Virus record (IMG/VR): IMGVR_UViG_3300033405_000009
Reading direction: 5' to 3' (one strand)
Length of the DNA stretch: 64,000 bases
Source: a virus
The notes below the pieces were generated by a model. It was not told the origin of the DNA. It searched no databases and saw nothing but the letters and a program-made list of their open reading frames with translations. Shown here one piece after another: positions 5,359-48,982 of the stretch; the stretch's first letter is position 1, and each line of letters starts with the position of its first letter. The position numbers were made by a program, and so were the translations under genes.

Positions 5359-5862
5359 TTAGGCGCTCAATACCTCCCCAATGATGATTTGACGAATGGC
5401 GTCGAGTATCGCTTCCGCATTAATAGACTCGAGATCCCCTTCGAGCTCAATTTTCGGCTCGGCGATTCCGGTCATTGAAATGACCACATTTCCATCTTTA
5501 GAAATCGCGGCTGAATACATATGTCCGAGACCGCGACGGCCACGATCCATTTCAAACCGGAAAGTGCAGGTTTGTGGGATCCAACGCCCCGGTTTGAATT
5601 TAGCAGGACGTCCCCACGAGGAATATTTTTCAACCGGAACCGGAAGAATTTCAACCAGTCCTCCTCGTTGCTCCAAGTTCAAATCTCGGAGAAAGGGATC
5701 ATTAGTGGATTTCCACCGAATTTCTCTTAGAACTTCCTTCAGATACGCCAAAGCAGCGTCCTGACGGAAGATAAACCATTCCTCGACAGCCAGCGTTGTG
5801 CCCATAGACGAACCTCGTTGAACTGAGGTTCCGGGCGGGCCGCGGATGGGAGGAAGAGTCAT
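5359..5862 (-). CDS. hypothetical protein
   Basis: ORF 167 aa. Confidence 0.5.
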   Translation of the reverse strand: MTLPPIRGPPGTSVQRGSSMGTTLAVEEWFIFRQDAALAYLKEVLREIRWKSTNDPFLRDLNLEQRGGLVEILPVPVEKYSSWGRPAKFKPGRWIPQTCTFRFEMDRGRRGLGHMYSAAISKDGNVVISMTGIAEPKIELEGDLESINAEAILDAIRQIIIGEVLSA

Positions 5863-5897
5863 TCGCAGAGCGTGGAGAGGTATTGAGGAAAGCTTGG

Positions 5898-5968
5898 CTC
5901 CGGCGCAGGGAATCGAACCCCGATTCGAAGATTCAAAGTCTTCTGTCCTGCCGTTGAACGACGCCGGA
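5898..5968 (-). tRNA. tRNA-Gln(UUG)
   Basis: acceptor pairing tccggcg/cgccgga, T-arm GGGAATCGAACCC, anticodon loop rc CTTTGAA. Confidence 0.6.
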
Positions 5969-7408: not shown

Positions 7409-7784
7409 ATTAACTCATCATTACGAAAAAAACCAAACAACCTCGATTTCGACATTCATGCCAGTCGCGTCCATGTTGACAGATTTTGCCCTGTCTCATC
7501 AACATTTGTTGACAGTTAGAGCATCGTCTGAGAGTTCGCTGTTTAGGCTTGCACCAATAGTCCCTATTACAGTTCTTGCATTTACGTTTGCAAGACTTGG
7601 TGCAAGACTTCTTCGTCGCAGTTCGGGAGATCACGTACGTTATGAGGATGTTCTGCGGCTTCATGAATGGTGCGAGAAATACCGCACCGTTTACAGGTCC
7701 AAGTCCACCATTCAAAATTATTAGCTTTTGGTGGGTTGGTCCAATCGTGCGTTCGCGCGTTATGCCATTCTTTACTTAGCTCCA

Positions 7785-7896: not shown

Positions 7897-8415
7897 TTAG
7901 GACACGCTCTGTCCGAGCCATGAAGCCCAGTCAGGGTGTGCCGTGCGAGGATCGATTCTGGCCGAAGATAACGGCAGGGACTTCGGCTTCACCGGCCTCG
8001 AGAGCAGCCTCATGCCGGCCTCTTCCGGGGTCCGGTCGCGCTTACGCTCGTTGCAGCCGTAGCAAGACGTCACGATGTTCTCCCAGACCGTCTTGCCGCC
8101 CTGCTTGCGCGGGACCACATGGTCGTAGTTGAGCTCGTGCGCTTCCTTGTGAGAACCGCAGTATTGACACCGAAACCCGTCCCTCGTGAGGACGTTCAGG
8201 CGCGAGAACTTGACTGCACGCTTGACGCTGTTGATGACTCTCTTGAGTCGCACGACGGCCGGCATCTTCATGCTGACAGACGGCGAGCAAATGGTTTCAT
8301 CGTACTCCTGCAGAACCTCCACGTCGCCCGTGTAGAGCATCGTGATTGCCTTCTGCCAAGGCACGACCTTATGCGGAGCGCACCAGGGAGTGAGGAGGAG
8401 CGTCTGCGTGTTCAT
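7897..8415 (-). CDS. HNH homing endonuclease
   Basis: YDHVVPRKQGGKTVWENIVTSCYGCNERK HNH motif. Confidence 0.7.
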   Translation of the reverse strand: MNTQTLLLTPWCAPHKVVPWQKAITMLYTGDVEVLQEYDETICSPSVSMKMPAVVRLKRVINSVKRAVKFSRLNVLTRDGFRCQYCGSHKEAHELNYDHVVPRKQGGKTVWENIVTSCYGCNERKRDRTPEEAGMRLLSRPVKPKSLPLSSARIDPRTAHPDWASWLGQSVS

Positions 8416-10918: not shown

Positions 10919-11176
10919 TCATGACTCCATGATTCGGAAGATGATTTCTTCCTCTTCTGTAGCTCGAACCATTCGATGTTTCCATCGTGTGGGGTTATGT
11001 TTGTCTGCTGGGACCTCTTTCACCTCCGCAACTCTATGAACAATAATTTCCCCATCGGATGGTAGGACTCCTGAATTGGTCAAGGTCCCAACTTCCATTC
11101 GAGTGTGAGATGTCCTAAAGAGGGGCATTCTCAAGAATACAACGGGTACGGGAAGAGGGGATCGAACCCCCGACAT
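10919..11176 (-). CDS. hypothetical protein (C-term FRIMES)
   Basis: ORF 85 aa. Confidence 0.45.
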   Translation of the reverse strand: MSGVRSPLPVPVVFLRMPLFRTSHTRMEVGTLTNSGVLPSDGEIIVHRVAEVKEVPADKHNPTRWKHRMVRATEEEEIIFRIMES

Positions 11177-13298: not shown

Positions 13299-13727
13299 TT
13301 ACTTTCGAAAATGAGTGCGAATCTTGTGACAGTTGGCACAAACAACATCGCATTTCTGGATTTCTGCTCTGATCATTTCTAGTGCTTTGAGGCTATGAGC
13401 GGCAATTTCACTCACACAAGAAGTCTTCGTAGTTGGATCTCGATGATCAAATTCCATGATATACGAAGGAAAAACCCCTTTACAGTCATGGCACGGTTTG
13501 TTTTTTGCTTCTTCACGAAGCCTTGATGCTTCGATTCTTAAACTAGTATTTCTTTCTTTGACAGCAGATTTTTGCTGAGTTTTATTGGCCTCATACCAAA
13601 ATTCATTGTAGGTTCTTTTGCATGCACGACATCGACTCTGCCGTGTTCCTTTTGTCTTAGACTTCCAAGCAAAATCTGTATCTTTTTTCTTATTACCGCA
13701 TTTTAGGCAAACGCGCATTCTAAACAA
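13299..13727 (-). CDS. HNH homing endonuclease
   Basis: CHDCKG...HxxxR...CANCH zinc-binding HNH pattern; paralog of 17683-18114. Confidence 0.65.
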   Translation of the reverse strand: MFRMRVCLKCGNKKKDTDFAWKSKTKGTRQSRCRACKRTYNEFWYEANKTQQKSAVKERNTSLRIEASRLREEAKNKPCHDCKGVFPSYIMEFDHRDPTTKTSCVSEIAAHSLKALEMIRAEIQKCDVVCANCHKIRTHFRK

Positions 13728-14451: not shown

Positions 14452-15048
14452 TTACACTCTGAGAGCTGCTTCTACCGAAGAGAGATAAACTTGATGGTAA
14501 CGATGGTCTCCATATGGAAGACCAGCCCCTCCAACTAGCTGTCCATTTTGAGCCTTGAGACTCCAATCTTTCCCGTTCCGAATGGTGTGAAGAGCGGCCA
14601 TCGAGTCCATGTGATGGACCCAACGCAAAACAGCGTAGCCAAACGCTGGACTTCTCGAACCACCCATTTGACAATGGACGTAAATCGGACCGAGGCCGAT
14701 CATCATCTTCGCAAAACTAACTGCATGCCTTACGGTATCCACATTGAATGGAGTTCCGTCATCCGGCACGCGACACTCAGAAAGATTGGGAATGCCTTTC
14801 CCCTCGTCTGAATGTTCAGTTTCTACGTTCAGAACCGAACGAATCCCGAAATCTTTCGCCAAATGCTCCCAATCCGTTTGATCGCAAATTGAGCCCCCGA
14901 TCATGAGATCTGGTGTCACCCACCACCTTTGAACCGGGTGGTTCGGATCGGGAGCGTAAACGCGATTGGTGTAAACTTCGGCCATTCCCATGTGGGACTT
15001 TACTGGAGCAGGAAGGCGCGGATCGAACGCGCGTTTCTCTGGGGGCAC
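14452..15048 (-). CDS. dual-specificity / protein-tyrosine phosphatase-like
   Basis: active-site signature VHCQMGGSRS (HC-X5-R); true start probably at internal Met ~14985. Confidence 0.55.
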   Translation of the reverse strand: MPPEKRAFDPRLPAPVKSHMGMAEVYTNRVYAPDPNHPVQRWWVTPDLMIGGSICDQTDWEHLAKDFGIRSVLNVETEHSDEGKGIPNLSECRVPDDGTPFNVDTVRHAVSFAKMMIGLGPIYVHCQMGGSRSPAFGYAVLRWVHHMDSMAALHTIRNGKDWSLKAQNGQLVGGAGLPYGDHRYHQVYLSSVEAALRV

Positions 15049-16155: not shown

Positions 16156-16596
16156 TCAAACTTGAACGGTCGCAATCAGCCTGCGTTTGGCAGTCACACG
16201 TCTATGACAGTTAGCACAACGGATTTCGCATTTGGCGATTTCTTTCTCGATTTTCCAAATCCTAAAACCACAACCAACCATTCTTGATATGTCACAAATC
16301 TTATCACCTTTTACGTGATCAAAGTCTAAAACTACGGGGTCATTCTCACCGCAATCCACACATGCTCGTTCAGATAAAACTTTTTGAACGTAATCCTTAG
16401 CTTGTTGGATCGCCCTATTGCGGATGGGCTTCATTCGATCGTAAACTGAAATTGGATTATTTTGATTTCGCAACCGAATTCGCTCTCTTACGCATGATTT
16501 GCAATCAGGTCTTAGTTTCCCATCCATTTTTGCAGGATGCAAGAAACTAAATTCCGCTTCAGCTAATACTTTTTGGCATTTTGTACATTTCTTCAT
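16156..16596 (-). CDS. HNH homing endonuclease
   Basis: CVDCGEND...DHVKGDK...CANCH. Confidence 0.65.
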   Translation of the reverse strand: MKKCTKCQKVLAEAEFSFLHPAKMDGKLRPDCKSCVRERIRLRNQNNPISVYDRMKPIRNRAIQQAKDYVQKVLSERACVDCGENDPVVLDFDHVKGDKICDISRMVGCGFRIWKIEKEIAKCEIRCANCHRRVTAKRRLIATVQV

Positions 16597-17619: not shown

Positions 17620-17692
17620 TGGAGTTGACCGGGAACGATCCGGCAACCTCGAGCTTGCAAAGCTCGCGCTCTCCCGATTGAGCTACAACCCC
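17620..17692 (-). tRNA. tRNA-Ala(UGC), non-canonical T-loop
   Basis: RNA reads GGGGTTG-TAGCTCAATCGGGAGAGC-CGAGC TTTGCAA GCTCG; T-loop ATCGTTC. Confidence 0.55.
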
Positions 17693-18114
17693 GTTTTGGT
17701 CATTTGTCGATGGTACGTTCTATCTGCATGACAATTAGCGCAAACTACCTCACATTTTTGGATTTCTGCCAAAACCACTTCTTCAGAATGTTTCCATATT
17801 TCATTAATGGTGCCCATTTTGACTGTTCCAGGCAAGTGGTCAAATTGCATACGCCAGTACGGGTGAATTAGTCTACAGTCGGCACAAGGTTTATTCTTGG
17901 CTTCTCGGACCATTTCTTTTAATTTTTGTTCTCGGGTTTTAGAGTGTTCTCTACTCTGAGAAATATGTTTTCTACGATTAGAAGGATTAGAATACCATTC
18001 TGACCAATATATCTTTTGGCAATCACGACAGACGCTGCTATATCCTGCTTTCTTTTTATTGAAAGAATCCGTAGATTTTGTCTCTCCGCATTTAGAACAA
18101 AATTTCTTCTCCAT
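17683..18114 (-). CDS. HNH homing endonuclease
   Basis: CADCRLIHPYWRMQFDH...CANCH; paralog of 13299-13727. Confidence 0.65.
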   Translation of the reverse strand: MEKKFCSKCGETKSTDSFNKKKAGYSSVCRDCQKIYWSEWYSNPSNRRKHISQSREHSKTREQKLKEMVREAKNKPCADCRLIHPYWRMQFDHLPGTVKMGTINEIWKHSEEVVLAEIQKCEVVCANCHADRTYHRQMTKTGL

Positions 18115-18211
18115 GTCTAGATTTGCAATGGATTTATTATTGCAAATCTAGACACAAGCCTTGCAAAGGCCTGATCCTGCCATTAGACTTATGGCCCCAA
18201 TGTGAACTTTG

Positions 18212-18282
18212 CTGGGGTGTAGGGACTCGAACCCCAATAGGCGGCTCCAGAGACCGCCGTCCTGCCATTAGACGACACCCCA
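18212..18282 (-). tRNA. tRNA-Gln(CUG)
   Basis: acceptor tggggtg/cacccca, anticodon stem gcggt/gccgc loop rc CTCTGGA. Confidence 0.55.
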
Positions 18283-18374
18283 AAGCGAGTGTAGCCCCGT
18301 CGCTTGAGCTACATTCAGCCCAGCTGCTCGAAGTAATCCTCAGGAGCGACCCCGAGGTTCCTCGTCAGCTGTAG

Positions 18375-18448
18375 TGGACCCAGACGGTGACGATCCGTCT
18401 ACCTCCGCGCTGCCAGCGCGGCGCTCTCCCAACGTGAGCTATGGGCCC
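18375..18448 (-). tRNA. tRNA-Ala(GGC), non-canonical T-loop
   Basis: RNA reads GGGCCCA-TA-GCTCACGTTGGGAGAGC-G-CCGCG CTGGCAG CGCGG; T-arm GACGG ATCGTCA CCGTC. Confidence 0.55.
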
Positions 18449-18449
18449 T

Positions 18450-18598
18450 TGGCACTGCGCTAGGAATCGAACCTAGTATCTAAGCGTCCACGATCTTCTT
18501 CTCAGCACCACCCATTCGTACGGCGCCGTACGAGATGAGCAGAAAACTCCGAGCCTCCAATCGCGACCTTCAAAGGAGTGGCACCAGCCACCGCATTG
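18450..18598 (-). ncRNA. structured region ending in tRNA-like T-arm/acceptor/CCA without a clean 5' acceptor partner
   Basis: 3' end ctagg-aatcgaa-cctag + cactgcg + TGG; 16-nt perfect palindrome CGTACGGCGCCGTACG at 18517-18532. Confidence 0.3.
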
Positions 18599-18669
18599 TG
18601 GACCGCCGGGGAATCGAACCCCGATCCCTCCCGTGCGAGGGGAGTGTACGCCCGTTGTACTAGCAGCCC
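18599..18669 (-). tRNA. tRNA-Ala(CGC)
   Basis: acceptor GGGCTGC/GCGGTCC with G-U pairs, D-stem GTAC/GTAC, anticodon stem CTCCC/GGGAG loop CTCGCAC, T-arm CGGGG TTCGATT CCCCG. Confidence 0.55.
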
Positions 18670-19185
18670 GTTTCGAATAAGTGGAGTAGATGTGTAAGCC
18701 GGGTTCTGTCGAGGACGATCATTCATCTAGGCTCGGCATTGCTGACGAGCTCAAGCAGCACACCCGAGAGCATCGGTCGGGCAAACCGCTCTCTGTTGGC
18801 CTTGCTCCAGGTGAGGTTTAGCGCAGTTTACATCACTGCAAACTGGGCAGGGTCTTACTCCTGCCTTTGCACCCTTACCACGGTCGAAACCGTGGCGGTT
18901 TTCTTTCTGTTCCACTTTCTGTCGGATCACTCCGCCTGGTCGTTAACCAGCACCCTGCCCTGTGGAGCCCGGACTTTCCTCTCGCCTTTCGGCCAGCGAT
19001 CGTCTCATCTACTCCGAAGATTGGTGGTACTCACTTGATTCTGCAGAATCTTTACACCCTCAAGAGGCCGTTACGGGAATCCTCCTTTTGGTGAAGGGCG
19101 ACAAGTGATCATGATCGAACGGATCTCTCCGCCCGCGCCATTTCCTTGCTGAGTACCGTCCCTAAGCAGTTTCGAACCTGCTCGG

Positions 19186-19253
19186 CACGCCCGGAAGGAA
19201 TCGAACCCTCATCCGGAGTTTTGGAGGCTCCGTTGGCACCTTGCCTCGGACGT
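19186..19253 (-). tRNA. tRNA-Trp(CCA)-like
   Basis: T-arm gaagg-aatcgaa-ccctc, loop rc CTCCAAA. Confidence 0.4.
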
Positions 19254-19319
19254 ATGGTGAGATGGGAATGATGAACGAGGGACCTAGAAATCAGGTCGTC
19301 ATTCCCATTCACATCTCAG

Positions 19320-19391
19320 CGCCCACGAAGGGAGTCGAACCCTCCTCACTGGCGTGACAAGCCAGCCGCCTCACCGGATGCGTACGCGGGC
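19320..19391 (-). tRNA. tRNA-Asp(GUC) copy 1
   Basis: anticodon stem ctggc/gccag loop rc TTGTCAC; paralog of 21175-21246. Confidence 0.55.
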
Positions 19392-19873
19392 AGTTTTCTA
19401 GTGCCGTAAGTCGATGTTTGTGAATGACAGTTTGGACAAAGAAATCGGAGATTGTCTTTGTCATTATTGGACCAATCTCCGTCTCTATGATCGATTGGGA
19501 GTGTTAATGGTTTGCCATTCCATTTCGGGCCTTGACCACAAGCTTCGCACTTATGCTCTACTCCGCTTTCTAAGAGAGCTCTTCTCAATTGAACGGTGGG
19601 TAGTCTTCTCTTACTAGTCGGAGTGAAGATTTGTGACGGAGCTTTTCTTTTAGTTGAAAATTTTCCTGTGAACCCTCTCCTGAAATGAGAGGTGTTCAAT
19701 TCATACTCTTCAATCCTTCGCCGGATGAGGCTACTGGTGCTTCCGGAATATGATTTGAATCCGAGTCGAGTTAGGACTTCTGCAAGAGAGAAACTTTCTC
19801 TTACAACTCTTTGTAGTACCTCTCGCGTGTATTTCACACGGTCATCATACAAGCGTCGTGAGCCAGCCGTCAA
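19346..19873 (-). CDS. HNH homing endonuclease
   Basis: CEACGQGPKWNGKPLTLPIDHRDGD...NLRFLCPNCH. Confidence 0.6.
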   Translation of the reverse strand: MTAGSRRLYDDRVKYTREVLQRVVRESFSLAEVLTRLGFKSYSGSTSSLIRRRIEEYELNTSHFRRGFTGKFSTKRKAPSQIFTPTSKRRLPTVQLRRALLESGVEHKCEACGQGPKWNGKPLTLPIDHRDGDWSNNDKDNLRFLCPNCHSQTSTYGTRKLPAYASGEAAGLSRQ

Positions 19874-19926
19874 GCGCCGTCACCAGCTGGCTCACGAGAC
19901 ACTGGGAGGCTTGCGCCTCCCAGTGT

Positions 19927-21123
19927 TCACTCGACGCTGACGATGACGCCCGCGCCGACAGTCTTGCTACCCTCACGAACAGCGAACCTCATTCCAGGCT
20001 CGAGTCCGATCGGAACCATCAACTCCAGCGAGACCTGTGCGTGATCTCCAGGGTTGATCATCTTGTTTTCGCCGAAACTCGTCACCGTTCCGGTGACGTC
20101 AGTCGTGCCGAAGAAGAATTGAGGTCTGTATCCCGGGAAGATCGGCGTGTGCCGACCACCCTCTTCTTTCGGAATCACGAATAGCTCCGCGAGAGCTTTT
20201 GCGTGAGGTTGTACGGAGCCGGGAGCGATGAGCACCTGACCACGAACTACCTCATCACGAGCCACTCCTCTGAGGAGAAGCCCACAGTTTTCGCCCGCGC
20301 GAGCCTCCACTTGATCCTTGTGGAACATCTGGATGCTCGTGACCACGACTTGACGAGGCTTGGAGTCTGCCTCTATCAATCCGACAATCTCGACGGGGGA
20401 CCCAGCCTTGAGGACACCACGCTCGATGCGACCCGTGACGACAGTGCCGCGACCAGGGATCGTGTGTACGCCTTCAATGGGCATCATGAACGGCGCGTCG
20501 TAATCTCGCTTCGGATCGGGAAAATGCTGGTCCATTGCGGCAACCAGCTCTGTGATGCAAGCCCCATCCACCGCGGGATTTCGGAGCGCCTTGAGCGCCG
20601 ATCCCTTGACCACCGGACAGTCTTTGTAGCCGTGCAGCTCCAAACGCTCGATCGTCTCCATGACGACAAGATCCAGAAGCTCAGGATCGGAGATGTCCAC
20701 TTTGTTGATGAACACTACGATTCTCTGAACCCCGACCTGACGAGCAAGCAGAATGTGCTCTTTCGTCTGATACTGAGGTCCTTGGCTACCGTCCACCAAG
20801 AGCACGGCCCCGTCCATTTGGGCGGCGCCAGTGATCATGTTCTTGATGTAGTCCGCGTGTCCAGGACAGTCGATATGCGCATAATGCCTAGTAGCACTCT
20901 CGTATTCGACATGGGACACGTTGATGGTCACCGTCTTCGACTCGTCTCGGACCGTGCCGCCCTTGGCGATATCCGCGTAGCTCTTGATCTTCGCGAGCTT
21001 CGCATGCGCTTGTACGGCCAGAAGAGCCGCCGTCAGCGTAGTCTTGCCATGGTCGACGTGTCCGATAGTCCCAACATTCACGTGCTGCTTCGTCACTGTG
21101 CCTTCGCCTCGGGTTGCCAGCCC
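19927..21123 (-). CDS. tuf: translation elongation factor Tu (bacterial type)
   Basis: [15 protein letters not shown]-loop, [12 protein letters not shown] motifs; ORF-track N-terminal extension to 21204 overlaps tRNA-Asp so start is probably non-ATG near 21123. Confidence 0.8.
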
Positions 21124-21174
21124 TTCTTCTCCTTGTAGTGCCCCGTCAGAAGTGTTCTGACTCCAGGGGCTCAG

Positions 21175-21246
21175 CGCTCTCGACCGGAATCGAACCGGCC
21201 TCATCGGCGTGACAAGCCGACTGCCTCACCAGATGCATACGAAAGC
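21175..21246 (-). tRNA. tRNA-Asp(GUC) copy 2
   Basis: T-arm accgg-aatcgaa-ccggc, anticodon arm near-identical to copy 1. Confidence 0.5.
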
Positions 21247-22137: not shown

Positions 22138-22743
22138 TCACTGCGAACTAAGAGATTTGCAACAACGAAAGCCGGTTTCGTAGAACCGGAAAGAAGGATG
22201 GTGCGCGTCGTTTGACTGACCGCACGAAGTTTTCTTCGCCCAAAATCCGCCTTTGAGCGTGTATGGATGATCTCGACCGTCACGGGAGACCACCCATTCT
22301 TCAACGCTTCCGAGGAGATCGTAAACCCCATCAGGGTTTTTGCATTGCGGCCAAGACCCAGAAGGCTGTCCTTGCCAAATGCGTCGAACTTCTCGTTTTG
22401 TTGCGTCTTTTGAAGCACTTGGAAAGAAAGCTTCTTCTTTCCATTCGAGCCACCGTCTGATGTTGAGACATGGACCTTGAGTAGGCTCACAAGCCGCGTC
22501 CCACTCATCTTCAGTGCATAGTCTCTTTTCTCGAGCCTCACACCATTTTTTCCCATCCATTGCGGATTGCATCACCATCGGATTCAGACCCTCAACGTTC
22601 GGGGCCTCGAATCTGTCCATGCAAACTCCGTGAGTCAACACCATGTCCTGAGGACAAACTGGTGAGAATTCCAGGAGAAGGAATGTGATGTAGATGAAGA
22701 CCGTCATTGTACGCATCCTACAGTGCGTCGACATGTCTGGCAA
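22138..22743 (-). CDS. secreted FGE/SUMF1-like (formylglycine-generating enzyme family) protein
   Basis: N-terminal hydrophobic signal-like segment; C-terminal ...RFYETGFRCCKS resembling FGE-sulfatase domain end. Confidence 0.4.
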   Translation of the reverse strand: MPDMSTHCRMRTMTVFIYITFLLLEFSPVCPQDMVLTHGVCMDRFEAPNVEGLNPMVMQSAMDGKKWCEAREKRLCTEDEWDAACEPTQGPCLNIRRWLEWKEEAFFPSASKDATKREVRRIWQGQPSGSWPQCKNPDGVYDLLGSVEEWVVSRDGRDHPYTLKGGFWAKKTSCGQSNDAHHPSFRFYETGFRCCKSLSSQ

Positions 22744-25055: not shown

Positions 25056-25496
25056 ATGAGAACTTGTAAGAAGTGTGGAAACTCTATTCCTCGGTACACC
25101 GAGGTGGACGGTAAACAAGTTTCGCTCACTAACAGGACCCTGTGTTTGGGGTGCAGTTCGCTTAAAAAGCCACGTTCTTTTCCAAACTTAAAACGTCAAA
25201 AGAATATGATACTCGTTACCGCTTATCGTCAGAAAACGAAACAGAAGGCTGTAGAAACTAAAGGAGGTAAGTGCGAAATCTGTGGATATGACCGTTGCAT
25301 TTCTGCACTTATCTTCCACCATCGCGACCCATCTACCAAGTCTTTCTCCATCAATGATGGTAGAACTCGAAGGTGGGAGATAGTTGAAAACGAGATCGTT
25401 AAATGCGCACTCCTTTGTCACAATTGCCATTCCGAAGTCCACGCGGGACTTATTCAGCTCCAGGGGAAGGACTCGAACCTCCAGCCTCTTGGTTAA
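25056..25496 (+). CDS. HNH homing endonuclease
   Basis: CEICGYDRC...FHHRDP...CHNCH. Confidence 0.65.
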   Translation: MRTCKKCGNSIPRYTEVDGKQVSLTNRTLCLGCSSLKKPRSFPNLKRQKNMILVTAYRQKTKQKAVETKGGKCEICGYDRCISALIFHHRDPSTKSFSINDGRTRRWEIVENEIVKCALLCHNCHSEVHAGLIQLQGKDSNLQPLG

Positions 25497-36486: not shown

Positions 36487-37725
36487 CTAGCCCTTCACAC
36501 ACATGATCTGCTTGAGCGTGTAAACGATATCGACCAGATCGCTTTGAGCTGCCATTACATCTTCGATCGGCTTGTAAGCACTCGGGCTCTCGTCGATTAC
36601 GTCCTTATCCTTGCGACAAGCCACACCCTCCGTCGCCGCTCGGTGCTCCTCGAGTGTGATACTCCGCTTGGCCTCCCCACGAGCCATCGTACGTCCTGCT
36701 CCGTGTGAACATGAATTGAAGCTCTCCGGGTTACCCTTCCCGCGCACGATATAACTCTTGGTGCCCATCGAACCCGGAATAATGCCCATGTCCCCGAGTT
36801 GAGCACGCACAGCACCCTTACGAGTCACCCATACATCTTCTCCGAGGTGATGCTCTCGAGCCACATAGTTGTGGTGACAATTCACCACTTCTCCGGTAAG
36901 AGTGAAGCGCGGGAGTCCAGCCTTGCGGACCGCCTCGATCACGGCTCGCATCATGAGATCACGATTTGTGCGAGCATAGTCCTGGCACCAGCTGACCGCC
37001 TTCACGTAGTCGTCGAAATGCTCGGTACCTTCATCCAGATACGCGAGGTCTCGGTTTGGAAGACGACGGTCGAGACGCTCCATGTCCTTCTTAGCGAGCT
37101 CGATGAAATAGGTTCCGATCTTGTTCCCAATCCCGCGGGATCCGGAATGGAGCATGAACCAAACGTTTTGGTCCTGATCGAGACATACTTCGACGAAGTG
37201 ATTACCTCCTCCGAGCGTCCCAAGTTGTCCTTCCGGATTTCCCTCCTTCGCACGACCATGACGTCCCACGACTTCCTTGAAGCCCGGGACAAGCCTCCCC
37301 CACGCCTCTGTGACGTACTTCGGGGTCTTCTCCCAGGACCCGACCGCGCCTTTATCTTTGGCGCTACCATGCGGAACGGCCGCTGAAATGTGGTCAAAGA
37401 GAAGCTTGTCAGCATTGACCGGAAGATCTGAGGCGTTGAGACTGGTACGCACGGCGGCCATACCACATCCGATGTCTACCCCGACAGCCGCCGGGATGAT
37501 GGCCTTCAGGGTCGGAATGACACTTCCGACTGTCGCCCCGATACCGAAATGGACATCAGGCATGACAGCAATATGCCCATGCACGATGGGAAGCGTGGCG
37601 GCCTGGATAAGCTGAAGCTTGGCTCCAGCTTCGAACTTCACTCCATTCGTCCATGCCTTGATGGGAACACGTCCGCCCTCGACCAACTCGTAGCTCATGC
37701 CGCATGTTACATGCGAACTGCACAA
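36487..37725 (-). CDS. rtcB: RtcB RNA 3'-phosphate/5'-OH ligase
   Basis: GGGNHFVE, CHHNYV, SCSHGAGR signature motifs. Confidence 0.85.
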   Translation of the reverse strand: MCSSHVTCGMSYELVEGGRVPIKAWTNGVKFEAGAKLQLIQAATLPIVHGHIAVMPDVHFGIGATVGSVIPTLKAIIPAAVGVDIGCGMAAVRTSLNASDLPVNADKLLFDHISAAVPHGSAKDKGAVGSWEKTPKYVTEAWGRLVPGFKEVVGRHGRAKEGNPEGQLGTLGGGNHFVEVCLDQDQNVWFMLHSGSRGIGNKIGTYFIELAKKDMERLDRRLPNRDLAYLDEGTEHFDDYVKAVSWCQDYARTNRDLMMRAVIEAVRKAGLPRFTLTGEVVNCHHNYVAREHHLGEDVWVTRKGAVRAQLGDMGIIPGSMGTKSYIVRGKGNPESFNSCSHGAGRTMARGEAKRSITLEEHRAATEGVACRKDKDVIDESPSAYKPIEDVMAAQSDLVDIVYTLKQIMCVKG

Positions 37726-47469: not shown

Positions 47470-47744
47470 GCGCTGAGAGCATCCTCCACGACAGCCATCA
47501 TATCGCGGGCCAGTTTCTCGCCCTCAACCAGGGTGGAGAACCCATCCGCGAGATCCAGCTCATAAGTCTCACGGTCTCCACCATGATCGATGGTGATACC
47601 TTCATCTTCGTACTGAGCGCAGACGCCTTGAAGCTTGTCCCATACTCCTGACCGAGAAAAGTCGTATGTTTTGGAAGAGACGACCTGACCCTCGGATTCA
47701 TCAGTGTGGAATGCGATTGTGATCTTCATTGGTGCGCTTCTCAT
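47466..47744 (-). CDS. hypothetical protein
   Basis: ORF 92 aa. Confidence 0.45.
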   Translation of the reverse strand: MRSAPMKITIAFHTDESEGQVVSSKTYDFSRSGVWDKLQGVCAQYEDEGITIDHGGDRETYELDLADGFSTLVEGEKLARDMMAVVEDALSA

Positions 47745-48982
47745 TCGTAGTCCCTCACCGCAATGAAACTAGCACCCTTCGGCTTCCCAGCGTCGGTCTT
47801 GTCCATGTAGCGATAAGTCACCACAGATCCAATCGGAGGAGGGTTGCGTCGATCTTCGTCTGTGAGCCCGCCGCCGAGGTTGAACTCGATGCCTTCCGGC
47901 GTCCGAACCTCCAGACCGCCCGTCCTGCCCTTGTGGCGGCCTTTCCCGGCCTCATAACCGATGACCGTGGCCTCCGCATCCTTCCACGGCTTGACCTTCA
48001 GAATGGTGGCGCTCCGGGCCGCGACGTACCGAGATTTCGGCTCGCGAATCATGACCCCCTCAGCCCCGAGAGCAACCAAGCGATCCAACTCCTGCTTGAG
48101 GTGATCGAGCCCGAGACATGGGTTTTGATCGACCATCTTGAAAAAGTCGCTGTGGCGATGCTTGAGGACACCCTCGAGCAATTCCATCCGCTTCTCGAAT
48201 CCTTCGAGGGTGAGGTGTGGCATGTCGAACGCGCGGTAGCATACCTTCTTCCAGCGGTCTCCGGAATCCACGCTCTTGACGACACTGATCGTCTGCTGGA
48301 AAGCATGACGCCCCATCCACAGCTCACCGTCGAGCGGGTGGTCGGGAAGACCGTTCCGGAACCAATCCGGGGCGTAGAAGATGTTGCCTTGGCGGGAGAT
48401 GAACTGCTTCCCGTCCCAATAGGCGCGCACCCCATCGAGCTTCTCGCTCATCCACCAGCCCTTGGGGCTAATATCGGCCTCCTCAAACGGATGTGCGAGG
48501 AGGATGGGCGGCCCGAAGAACTTCGCTTTCTCGTCCTGACGGAGCTTGCGTCCAAGCTCCTTCTCCGCCATCTCCTCGATCTGAGGCCGCATTTGCATGA
48601 GGAAATCCATGCCGGCGCGGCGACAGTGGTTGACGAACGATTCGACGCTTTTGCCCTCCCAACCCGGCTCACCAAGAGCGACGCTCGACACCGGATTCCC
48701 GTTGCCGGACGCGGCTCTCGGAGCGTTGCTAAGGTTGGGTGCAGAGGTCGGGAGGCGACCTGTGGTGATCCCTACGGCAGAGATACCGCCAATACGGGCC
48801 GTCTCAGCTGCATCACCGCAGACCTTTCGCAGGTGCTTGCAGGTGCGCTTGTCGATGGGAACCGACTGATTGCGCCATGCAGGGCAAGAGCAGCTCTTGA
48901 CTCCACCCGAGTTCTTGAGCTGGTAGGGCTTGGACCCTGAACCCTGCACCTCTGCCGTATCGCCGTCGTGATCGAGCGCCAT
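47741..48982 (-). CDS. ATP-dependent DNA ligase with N-terminal Cys-rich zinc-finger-like domain
   Basis: KLDGVRAYW (motif I KxDG), EGVMIREP (IV), ILKVKPWKD (VI); N-term CSCPAW..C.H. Confidence 0.75.
   Translation of the reverse strand: MALDHDGDTAEVQGSGSKPYQLKNSGGVKSCSCPAWRNQSVPIDKRTCKHLRKVCGDAAETARIGGISAVGITTGRLPTSAPNLSNAPRAASGNGNPVSSVALGEPGWEGKSVESFVNHCRRAGMDFLMQMRPQIEEMAEKELGRKLRQDEKAKFFGPPILLAHPFEEADISPKGWWMSEKLDGVRAYWDGKQFISRQGNIFYAPDWFRNGLPDHPLDGELWMGRHAFQQTISVVKSVDSGDRWKKVCYRAFDMPHLTLEGFEKRMELLEGVLKHRHSDFFKMVDQNPCLGLDHLKQELDRLVALGAEGVMIREPKSRYVAARSATILKVKPWKDAEATVIGYEAGKGRHKGRTGGLEVRTPEGIEFNLGGGLTDEDRRNPPPIGSVVTYRYMDKTDAGKPKGASFIAVRDYE

Follow-up and report, generated by a model that had tools for sequence, protein, structure and literature searches.

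An EF-Tu gene set between diverged tRNA-Asp genes in the tRNA array of a probable huge phage

The stretch of DNA considered here, 64,000 nucleotides of the IMG/VR virus record IMGVR_UViG_3300033405_000009 (henceforth the window), carries between positions 19,320 and 21,246 a gene for elongation factor EF-Tu and a gene for an HNH endonuclease, both set between two tRNA-Asp(GUC) genes. A first-pass annotation, drawn from the letters alone, had recognized these parts, and there it was right. ARAGORN and Rfam recover both tRNA-Asp genes around the pair, on the minus strand; the endonuclease matches PHROG 10822 'HNH endonuclease' (E-value 2e-47); the bacterial-type EF-Tu is complete; and a phage-type genome does indeed hold its own EF-Tu inside a tRNA array. 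The annotation went on to propose that a homing endonuclease had recently brought in a host tuf gene as part of a GC-rich cassette, duplicating a tRNA-Asp gene on the way. Comparison with other loci, designated below by L numbers, points to another history, where the EF-Tu gene appears as an old resident and the endonuclease gene as a later arrival.

The genes at the locus

Read along the minus strand, the locus opens with one tRNA-Asp gene (copy 2). The structured leader of the EF-Tu gene begins 2 nt past it, and the coding sequence follows, then a GC-rich hairpin, the HNH gene and the other tRNA-Asp gene (copy 1). Further downstream lie a tRNA-Trp-like gene and an RNase P RNA (Table 1). A long open reading frame (ORF) starting with ATG and extending to 21204 is artefactual, as it crosses the leader and enters tRNA-Asp.

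Table 1. Features of the EF-Tu locus in the window, in the order of the minus strand.
Feature	Position	Strand	Basis
tRNA-Asp(GUC) copy 2, directly upstream of the EF-Tu leader	21174/75-21246	minus	ARAGORN; Rfam tRNA, 47.2 bits, E 3e-8
Structured 5' leader of the EF-Tu gene	21097-21172	minus	14-sequence alignment, RNAalifold, covariance model
EF-Tu coding sequence, 389 aa, GTG start, TGA stop	19927-21096	minus	Pfam; same as JGI gene call P0001
GC-rich hairpin right after the EF-Tu stop codon, CACTGGGAGGC-GCAA-GCCTCCCAGTG	19900-19925	minus	Read from sequence
Inserted segment of about 508 bp with free-standing HNH gene, GC 0.46	19392-19899	minus	Spacer comparison with L111, L110, L113
HNH endonuclease ORF	19346-19873	minus	ORF list; PHROG 10822
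tRNA-Asp(GUC) copy 1, downstream of the HNH gene	19319/20-19391	minus	ARAGORN; Rfam tRNA, 45.9 bits, E 6e-8
tRNA-Trp(CCA)-like gene, non-canonical, next downstream	19184-19255	minus	Comparison with relatives
RNase P RNA, bacterial class A, full-length	18679-19015	minus	Rfam RF00010, 287.6 bits, E 6e-93, model positions 1-367

The EF-Tu protein has the complete three-domain architecture of the factor, with the Pfam profiles covered over their full length (GTP_EFTU, E 7e-51; D2, E 3e-20; D3, E 1.6e-28), and it matches solved EF-Tu structures at E 1e-139. Its GTPase motifs are intact: the P-loop GHVDHGKT (G1), the switch I threonine, DCPGH with the catalytic histidine (G3), NKVD (G4) and SAL (G5). 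Switch I itself is non-canonical. It reads KTVTI where canonical EF-Tu has RGITI (..PEEKARGITI), a stretch which we take to span the Lit protease site of the E. coli factor. A phage-specific adaptation against host defence comes to mind. It is ruled out: the same sequence is carried by the housekeeping tuf gene of the Planctomycetota and Myxococcota loci examined, in the context Thr-Tyr-Gly-Thr-tuf-Trp. Because these cellular genes have the same form, the variant is a natural subtype of EF-Tu, and does not disqualify the protein.

An EF-Tu lineage of huge phages

The window EF-Tu is far from alone. Protein clusters with 78-88% identity to it number more than 100, the NCBI cluster names of the closest ones being uninformative, and members of this huge-phage lineage are 70-88% identical among themselves. 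The nearest homologues come from viral contigs of IMG/VR, 62-436 kb in length, and from metagenome contigs that reach 530 kb. GenBank phages have no EF-Tu more than 60% identical to that of the window, nor any relative of the window itself: DNA matches there are only to tRNA, to RNase P or to contaminating host tuf. As for bacteria, the best identity is at most 62%, among the 80 loci kept from 600 scored GTDB genome candidates. These best 80 made up the bacterial sample of a tree of 105 sequences, built by neighbour joining only, with 200 bootstraps. The window EF-Tu groups there with those of L001-L006, L008, L024 and L009 in 195 of the 200 replicates, and in 200 of 200 once the switch I region is left out; outside this clade, the closest sequences are other IMG/VR EF-Tu genes. 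A phylogeny of the protein had been set beforehand as the test of a host donor: it places the gene among its huge-phage homologues.

The gene is under strong purifying selection, with a ratio of non-synonymous to synonymous substitution rates (dN/dS) of 0.05-0.16 against 13 relatives, and a dS of at least 1 even for the closest, which means that synonymous sites are saturated. These figures therefore argue that the phage EF-Tu is a functional gene, and that its residence is older than the divergence of these phages. It would be an old resident phage gene, and no recent import from a host. Densely packed tRNA genes, co-oriented with it, surround the gene in the neighbourhoods of L001-L007, L009, L010, L024, L110, L111, L113 and L115; in L008, three tRNAs alone are found in 21 kb around EF-Tu. 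The closest IMG/VR homologue, in L007 (88% identity), is split at about 10930-11050 by an apparent frameshift at FFF codons, which may be an assembly error or the mark of a pseudogene.

Composition had been a main reason for suspecting a transfer, the segment being described as GC-rich throughout. In fact EF-Tu alone is high, with a GC content of 0.574 (0.67 at third codon positions, GC3), against 0.46 for the HNH gene and 0.505 for the window. The EF-Tu value is merely 1.4 standard deviations above that of 32 other window ORFs; the ligase gene (0.605) and another HNH gene (0.601) exceed it. Since the gene is richer in GC than its flanks, by 2-8 points, in 11 of 11 relatives, tracking genome GC from 0.36 to 0.61, this modest excess is a property of the EF-Tu gene, not a scar of transfer.

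The lineage has a further signature, in front of the gene. A conserved element of 60-90 nt precedes every EF-Tu of the clade, whichever gene comes before it. It consists of a bulged hairpin (GCCCC, an invariant UGGA bulge, a variable inner stem of 6 bp, then GGGGC), a purine-rich linker and a GGG-CUGGCAA-CCC hairpin that sits just ahead of the EF-Tu start codon. In an alignment of 14 sequences the pairing is kept in 98.5% of cells, and 8 of 14 pairs have compensatory changes, a result equalled by none of 500 shuffles. RNAalifold, unprompted, gives the identical structure. A covariance model of the leader (R1) matches solely upstream of EF-Tu genes of the clade, and it finds the leader of L009, which was outside the training set, at 23 bits. 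It has no match at the bacterial tuf genes or the more distant viral EF-Tu genes examined, and the bacterial tuf leaders examined are without the element. Within IMG/VR the exact pattern occurs on 4 contigs only, and in all four an EF-Tu gene lies downstream of it; Rfam has no family for the element. Small upstream ORFs noticed in the leaders of L111 and L001 are not conserved.

At the other end of the gene, the hairpin that follows the stop codon has an equivalent in L111, L110, L113, L024, L001 and L002. It is followed by no T-run and is not called by a terminator scan; the promoter and terminator scans did no better than on shuffled sequence. Because the same leader and the same 3' hairpin go with the coding sequence in every place of the arrays where the gene is found, EF-Tu would move as a unit made of leader, coding sequence and hairpin.

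The tRNA-Asp pair, the slots of the EF-Tu unit and the HNH insertion

The two tRNA-Asp genes had been taken to be near-identical. In fact 17 of their 72 positions differ (76% identity, or 81% in a shifted frame). Of these differences, 14 sit in 7 base pairs where both partners have changed and pairing is preserved; one is one-sided, and two lie in loops. Both copies fold as a cloverleaf, with the GUC anticodon and G73, and their stem pairs are standard save for an A-G mismatch in the D stem, common to both. The differences being mostly compensatory changes in stems, the copies are best seen as old, independently maintained functional paralogues. The two genes also have in common their D arm and a 3' trailer of 5 nt, CTGAG, and they are closer to each other than to most tRNA-Asp genes found in relatives. 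Divergence of tRNA genes within these arrays is too rapid for orthologues of the upstream and downstream Asp genes to be told apart across phages. An integrase-type island with duplication of its tRNA target site was considered and rejected, both copies being full-length and as divergent as just described, with no recombinase ORF between them.

Relatives show what the locus looks like in the absence of the endonuclease gene. In L111 (87% identity) the order is Glu-Asp-EF-Tu-Asp-Glu, and 35 nt separate the stop codon from the downstream tRNA-Asp. The arrangement is equivalent in L110 and L113 (86%), with Asp-EF-Tu-Asp and no HNH gene. From the hairpin to tRNA-Asp the spacer is 4-12 nt long in these three, and free of ORFs, against 508 nt of lower GC in the window (19899-19392); the junctions of the insert are thereby defined. 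Since three relatives have the Asp bracket around EF-Tu without the endonuclease, the HNH gene is a later, secondary insertion, and the bracket is older. This insertion of about 508 bp, between the 3' hairpin of EF-Tu and the downstream tRNA-Asp, is the sole recent event at the locus. The slot directly 3' of EF-Tu is occupied by a GIY-YIG endonuclease in L007 and by an unrelated HNH gene in L006: separate endonuclease families have colonized it independently. Such a pattern of presence and absence looks like that expected of free-standing homing endonucleases. The first-pass annotation was correct in seeing an insertion of a homing endonuclease here, at a unit whose slot varies and which endonucleases often adjoin; that the endonuclease brought EF-Tu finds no support, given L111, L110 and L113.

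The HNH protein has the motif CxxC...DH...N...CPNCH, with the CxxC zinc ligands present (CEACG...DHRDGDWSNNDKDNLRFLCPNCH); its score with the Pfam HNH family, 20.8 bits, is slightly under the cutoff of 21.4. Its GC3 is 0.40. The start codon is likely GTG at 19837, TTG at 19852 or 19873 being also possible, and a sigma70-like sequence, TTGACG-18-TATGAT, is found at 19873-19844 (a consensus match only). Homologues with 33-46% identity are scattered at other positions of other arrays, in L002, L022 and L026. The match to the PHROG profile covers positions 7-154 of 245 only; strong truncation of the protein is ruled out, for short homologues have 168-179 aa as against 163 aa here, and only a short tail has been replaced. 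Spread over the window array are at least five more HNH genes or HNH-like stretches, of two or more families, at 7897-8415(-), 13302-13715(-), 16168-16407(-), 17683-18114(-) and 25230-25436(+). The ORFs at 7897-8415 and 17683-18114 have direct Pfam or PHROG matches, and the other three were found as tblastn matches to 17683-18114. L007 ends in a partial gene with which the gene at 7897-8415 has 85% identity.

At the end of the HNH gene, no in-frame stop stands ahead of the tRNA: the ORF reads 46 nt into tRNA-Asp copy 1 (19346-19391), as far as a TGA in the anticodon stem, and the 5' half of the tRNA gene encodes the last 15 HNH codons. RNase P cutting at the 5' end of this tRNA would leave a non-stop HNH mRNA. 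A comparison with SegB of phages T4 and T6 is in order. SegB favours transmission of the tRNA genes on its flanks, and a statistical excess of its homologues is found beside tRNA genes (PMC2330249; PMC13096335). Here too the endonuclease gene occupies a spacer between clustered phage tRNA genes, and relatives have it only sporadically; the window enzyme, by contrast, is an HNH protein while SegB is of the GIY-YIG type, the one present in the same slot of L007. In T6, amplification of the SegB type yields tandem repeats of tRNA, endonuclease and tRNA, with the 3' end of the endonuclease gene fused to the 5' end of the tRNA (PMC13096335). Might the tRNA-Asp pair come from an endonuclease-driven segmental amplification of this kind, followed by divergence or partial deletion? 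The stopless run of the HNH ORF into the first base of copy 1 would fit, as would the common D arm and trailer of the two Asp genes. Yet the copies are 24% diverged, with compensatory changes, and the window shows no tandem identical repeats. The Asp-EF-Tu-HNH unit is not repeated, tRNA and trailer alone being common at 76-81% identity; the Asp bracket of relatives holds no endonuclease gene; and the HNH protein has nearly the full length of its short homologues. We regard this origin as improbable.

The bracket is not the only place where the EF-Tu unit is found. Its slot is Asp/Asp in the window, L111, L110 and L113, Asp/GIY-YIG in L007, Thr(CGU)/Glu(UUC) in L115 and Thr(UGU)/Gly(CCC) in L002, which suggests a unit relocatable within arrays. 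Breaks induced by endonucleases possibly helped it to relocate. The array of L002 is otherwise syntenic with that of the window (His-Arg(CCU)-Asp-Asp-Trp-Trp-like-RNase P-Ala...), and its two Asp genes are adjacent, 27 nt apart. This invites a reading where the bracket is an occupied site and not a duplication, the EF-Tu unit having been transposed by recombination into a tandem tRNA-Asp pair that was already there. The syntenic pair of L002, the slot of L115, and the constant company of leader and 3' hairpin all go in that direction; against them, L002 could equally have lost the unit from its Asp slot, orthology between its Asp genes and the window pair is not clear, and the ends of the unit bear neither recombination scars nor repeats. 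We retain such a transposition as a tentative possibility, on the unlikely side.

What becomes, then, of a homing-endonuclease cassette that would have recently imported a host tuf gene into the array, duplicating tRNA-Asp? EF-Tu does exceed the window average in GC, but its composition has been ameliorated to that of each phage genome, and the composition of the HNH gene is far off (GC3 0.40 versus 0.67). An HNH gene does adjoin EF-Tu, and tRNA-Asp genes do flank the two, but the same bracket exists without HNH in L111, L110 and L113, around tRNA copies that differ at 17 of 72 positions. Finally, tuf is ultimately bacterial, and the order Thr-Tyr-Gly-Thr-tuf-Trp is echoed by Thr-Gly-Thr-EF-Tu in L002 and by the Trp-like gene downstream in the window; the protein nevertheless belongs to a phage-specific clade, no closer than 62% to the bacteria sampled, with saturated synonymous sites even towards its nearest relatives and a clade-specific leader not found at the bacterial tuf genes examined. 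A recent host capture linked to the HNH gene is hardly credible. Of the mobile cassette, the mobility within arrays stands.

The array as a translation island

The locus is part of a larger ensemble. ARAGORN finds 43 tRNA genes between 5.9 and 25.9 kb, and Rfam adds four: an island of about 20 kb, on a single strand, with about 47 tRNA genes, the RNase P RNA and EF-Tu. The window is without a canonical tRNA-Trp or tRNA-Tyr. A permuted 'tmRNA*' (transfer-messenger RNA) called by ARAGORN at 18057-18690 (-) overlaps three tRNA genes and has no Rfam tmRNA support; it is probably a false positive. Between the tRNA genes are also found an FGE-sulfatase-domain protein (22138-22743, -) and a protein with weak likeness to dual-specificity phosphatases (14452-15048, -).

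The RNase P RNA is co-oriented with the tRNA genes, 0.9 kb downstream. L002 likewise has one (5552-5904, 263 bits); in the other relatives examined no such RNA was found up to about 10 kb from EF-Tu. None of the top-ranked papers on jumbo or huge phages that literature searches returned mentions RNase P. The tRNA-Trp-like gene was missed by both ARAGORN and Rfam. Its structure has an acceptor stem of 7 bp, a D stem of 4 bp with an AGG loop of 3 nt, a short variable region, and an anticodon loop CUCCAAA closed by a conserved C-A mismatch. It has homologues in L110 (7405-7478), L007 (12019-12146), L003 (1221-1292), L002 (5500-5555), L111 (~2230-2301) and L113 (~7415-7491), where the acceptor, D and anticodon stems have all undergone compensatory changes. 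Over its 3' half the gene matches the bacterial tRNA-Trp located after tuf in L043. About 55 nt past the gene are conserved in the window (to ~19129) and in L007, including a hairpin that resembles a T arm. This odd gene and a phage RNase P RNA are new side observations. The arrays of relatives harbour other RNAs: a match to the bacterial small signal recognition particle RNA in L009 (12509-12591, 42.1 bits for a gathering threshold of 40), a match to the tRNA-Sec model in L110 (4905-4978, 49.3 versus 47), a group I intron in L007 (6329-6559, 76.6 bits) and a tmRNA in L002 (18222-18576, 123.8 bits).

We take the window, with high confidence, for a piece of a huge phage. It is rich in ORFans and almost unidirectional, nearly all ORFs are short ORFans, and it carries RtcB, an ATP-dependent DNA ligase, a collagen- or tail-fibre-like ORF, phrog_6452 and several HNH genes. 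That the contig be instead a fragment of a bacterial or symbiont chromosome, or of a megaplasmid, with EF-Tu as its housekeeping gene, seems very unlikely. There is indeed a cellular look to the RNase P RNA, to EF-Tu and to the near-complete set of tRNAs, large plasmid-like elements carry similar translation genes according to Al-Shayeb et al. (PMC7162821), and no virion gene was found in the 64 kb. No rRNA, ribosomal-protein or other cellular housekeeping gene was found there either, however; the free-standing HNH genes are many, RtcB, the ligase and phrog_6452 are PHROG hits, ten relatives are viral contigs of IMG/VR (62-436 kb), and such dense packing of tRNA genes on one strand is unlike bacterial genomes. 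The RtcB tRNA-splicing ligase (phrog_1075, E 8e-140) is encoded at 36487-37725 (-) and the DNA ligase at 47741-48982 (-), both near the array, which suggests repair of tRNAs cut by host defences. At 30674-33232 (+) lies a gene for an 852-aa protein with major vault protein domains (MVP_shoulder, E 1e-29; Vault_3, E 8e-10), unusual for a phage-type genome.

With a probability that we put at about three in four, the segment belongs to a 'translation island' of some 20 kb in a huge peat phage, as a long-resident EF-Tu unit between diverged tRNA-Asp genes where a selfish HNH gene was inserted later. We picture its operation as follows. The island would be transcribed as long tRNA-mRNA precursors, as is a bacterial tRNA-tufB operon. 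RNase P, its RNA subunit being encoded nearby, and 3' processing would cut out the tRNAs, and this excision would free an EF-Tu mRNA bounded by the leader hairpin and by the 3' hairpin. The phage EF-Tu would be a working carrier of aminoacyl-tRNA, supplementing or replacing the host factor during infection. The HNH gene would be a selfish passenger: its product probably cleaves endonuclease-free alleles near the junction of the EF-Tu 3' end with tRNA-Asp during co-infection, and the gene would spread by gene conversion.

Two known arrangements illuminate this picture. In E. coli, thrU-tyrU-glyT-thrT-tufB forms one cotranscript, processed to tRNAs and tufB mRNA (PMC12439589). The window EF-Tu is likewise co-oriented with tRNA genes and directly downstream of them; L002 keeps Thr-Gly-Thr-EF-Tu, and the window keeps the Trp-like gene downstream, though not the Thr-Tyr-Gly-Thr order. 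The differences are the Asp/Asp flanks of the window, its array of about 47 tRNAs and its unrelated leader; co-transcription is here only proposed. The second arrangement is that of animal mitochondria, where mRNAs flanked by tRNA genes are released by processing at the tRNA 5' and 3' ends (tRNA punctuation). This is an analogy only, as the mRNA unit of the window also has terminal hairpins of its own.

Several points weigh against the reading just given. The absence of a closer bacterial tuf was established on the best 80 of 600 candidates, and is suggestive: a closer bacterial lineage may lie outside this sample. Within the clade, L024 and L009 carry the canonical RGITI/RGVTI, while the rest carry the Planctomycetota/Myxococcota-type KGGTVRDxxKTVTI (residues ~30-60). 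The history of the EF-Tu gene is thus mosaic, and not fully explained; the better support of the clade in the absence of switch I suggests recombination within the gene. The moves of the unit between slots could have run in either direction. No insert-free variant of the same phage was found, the sole near-identical contigs, L028 and L029, being 100% identical, with the same arrangement. Co-transcription and the release of an EF-Tu mRNA punctuated by tRNAs are deduced from strand and spacing only. Lastly, no capsid, portal or terminase gene was found in the 64-kb window, and its assignment to a phage rests on the IMG/VR relatives, the ORFan-rich unidirectional content, the tail-fibre-like ORF and several PHROG hits.

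A bolder variant of this picture of the island may be sketched, unlikely as we find it at present. The island might be a phage-private elongation module, partly self-sufficient, with its own RNase P ribozyme, about 47 fast-evolving tRNAs (the structurally aberrant tRNA-Trp-like species among them), an EF-Tu that co-evolves with them, a clade-specific leader that acts, through its invariant UGGA bulge and its CUGGCA loop, as dedicated regulatory or processing element, and endonuclease insertions driving exchange of modules between co-infecting phages. If so, the phage EF-Tu would favour phage tRNAs, or would sustain elongation when defence systems or phage shut-off inactivate the EF-Tu or tRNAs of the host.

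That huge phages have EF-Tu and that phage tRNA clusters have endonucleases was already known. Huge phages encode EF-G, EF-Tu and EF-Ts, factors read as sustaining or redirecting translation in infection (Al-Shayeb et al., 2020, Nature 578:425; PMC7162821). That study deals with metagenomic phages above 200 kb that have sizeable tRNA sets as well as elongation factors, and the present case recalls them; its main text reports presence only, without placement of EF-Tu in an array, a monophyletic long-resident lineage, a leader, a tRNA-Asp pair or an RNase P RNA. New here are the recognition of a clade-specific structured leader of EF-Tu and the evidence for a long-resident, relocatable unit. There is a lesson of caution for annotation: local differences in GC are poor evidence for recent transfer, and flanking tRNA genes with the same anticodon are poor evidence for a duplication generated by insertion. 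As to biology, the EF-Tu of this genome would be an anciently domesticated, selected gene with its own candidate cis-regulatory RNA, set in a tRNA array much as in a bacterial tufB operon. The idea that huge phages partly run elongation would thereby gain concrete parts, namely the mRNA unit of EF-Tu, its candidate leader RNA, a phage RNase P RNA and, for HNH, a natural 'empty site'.

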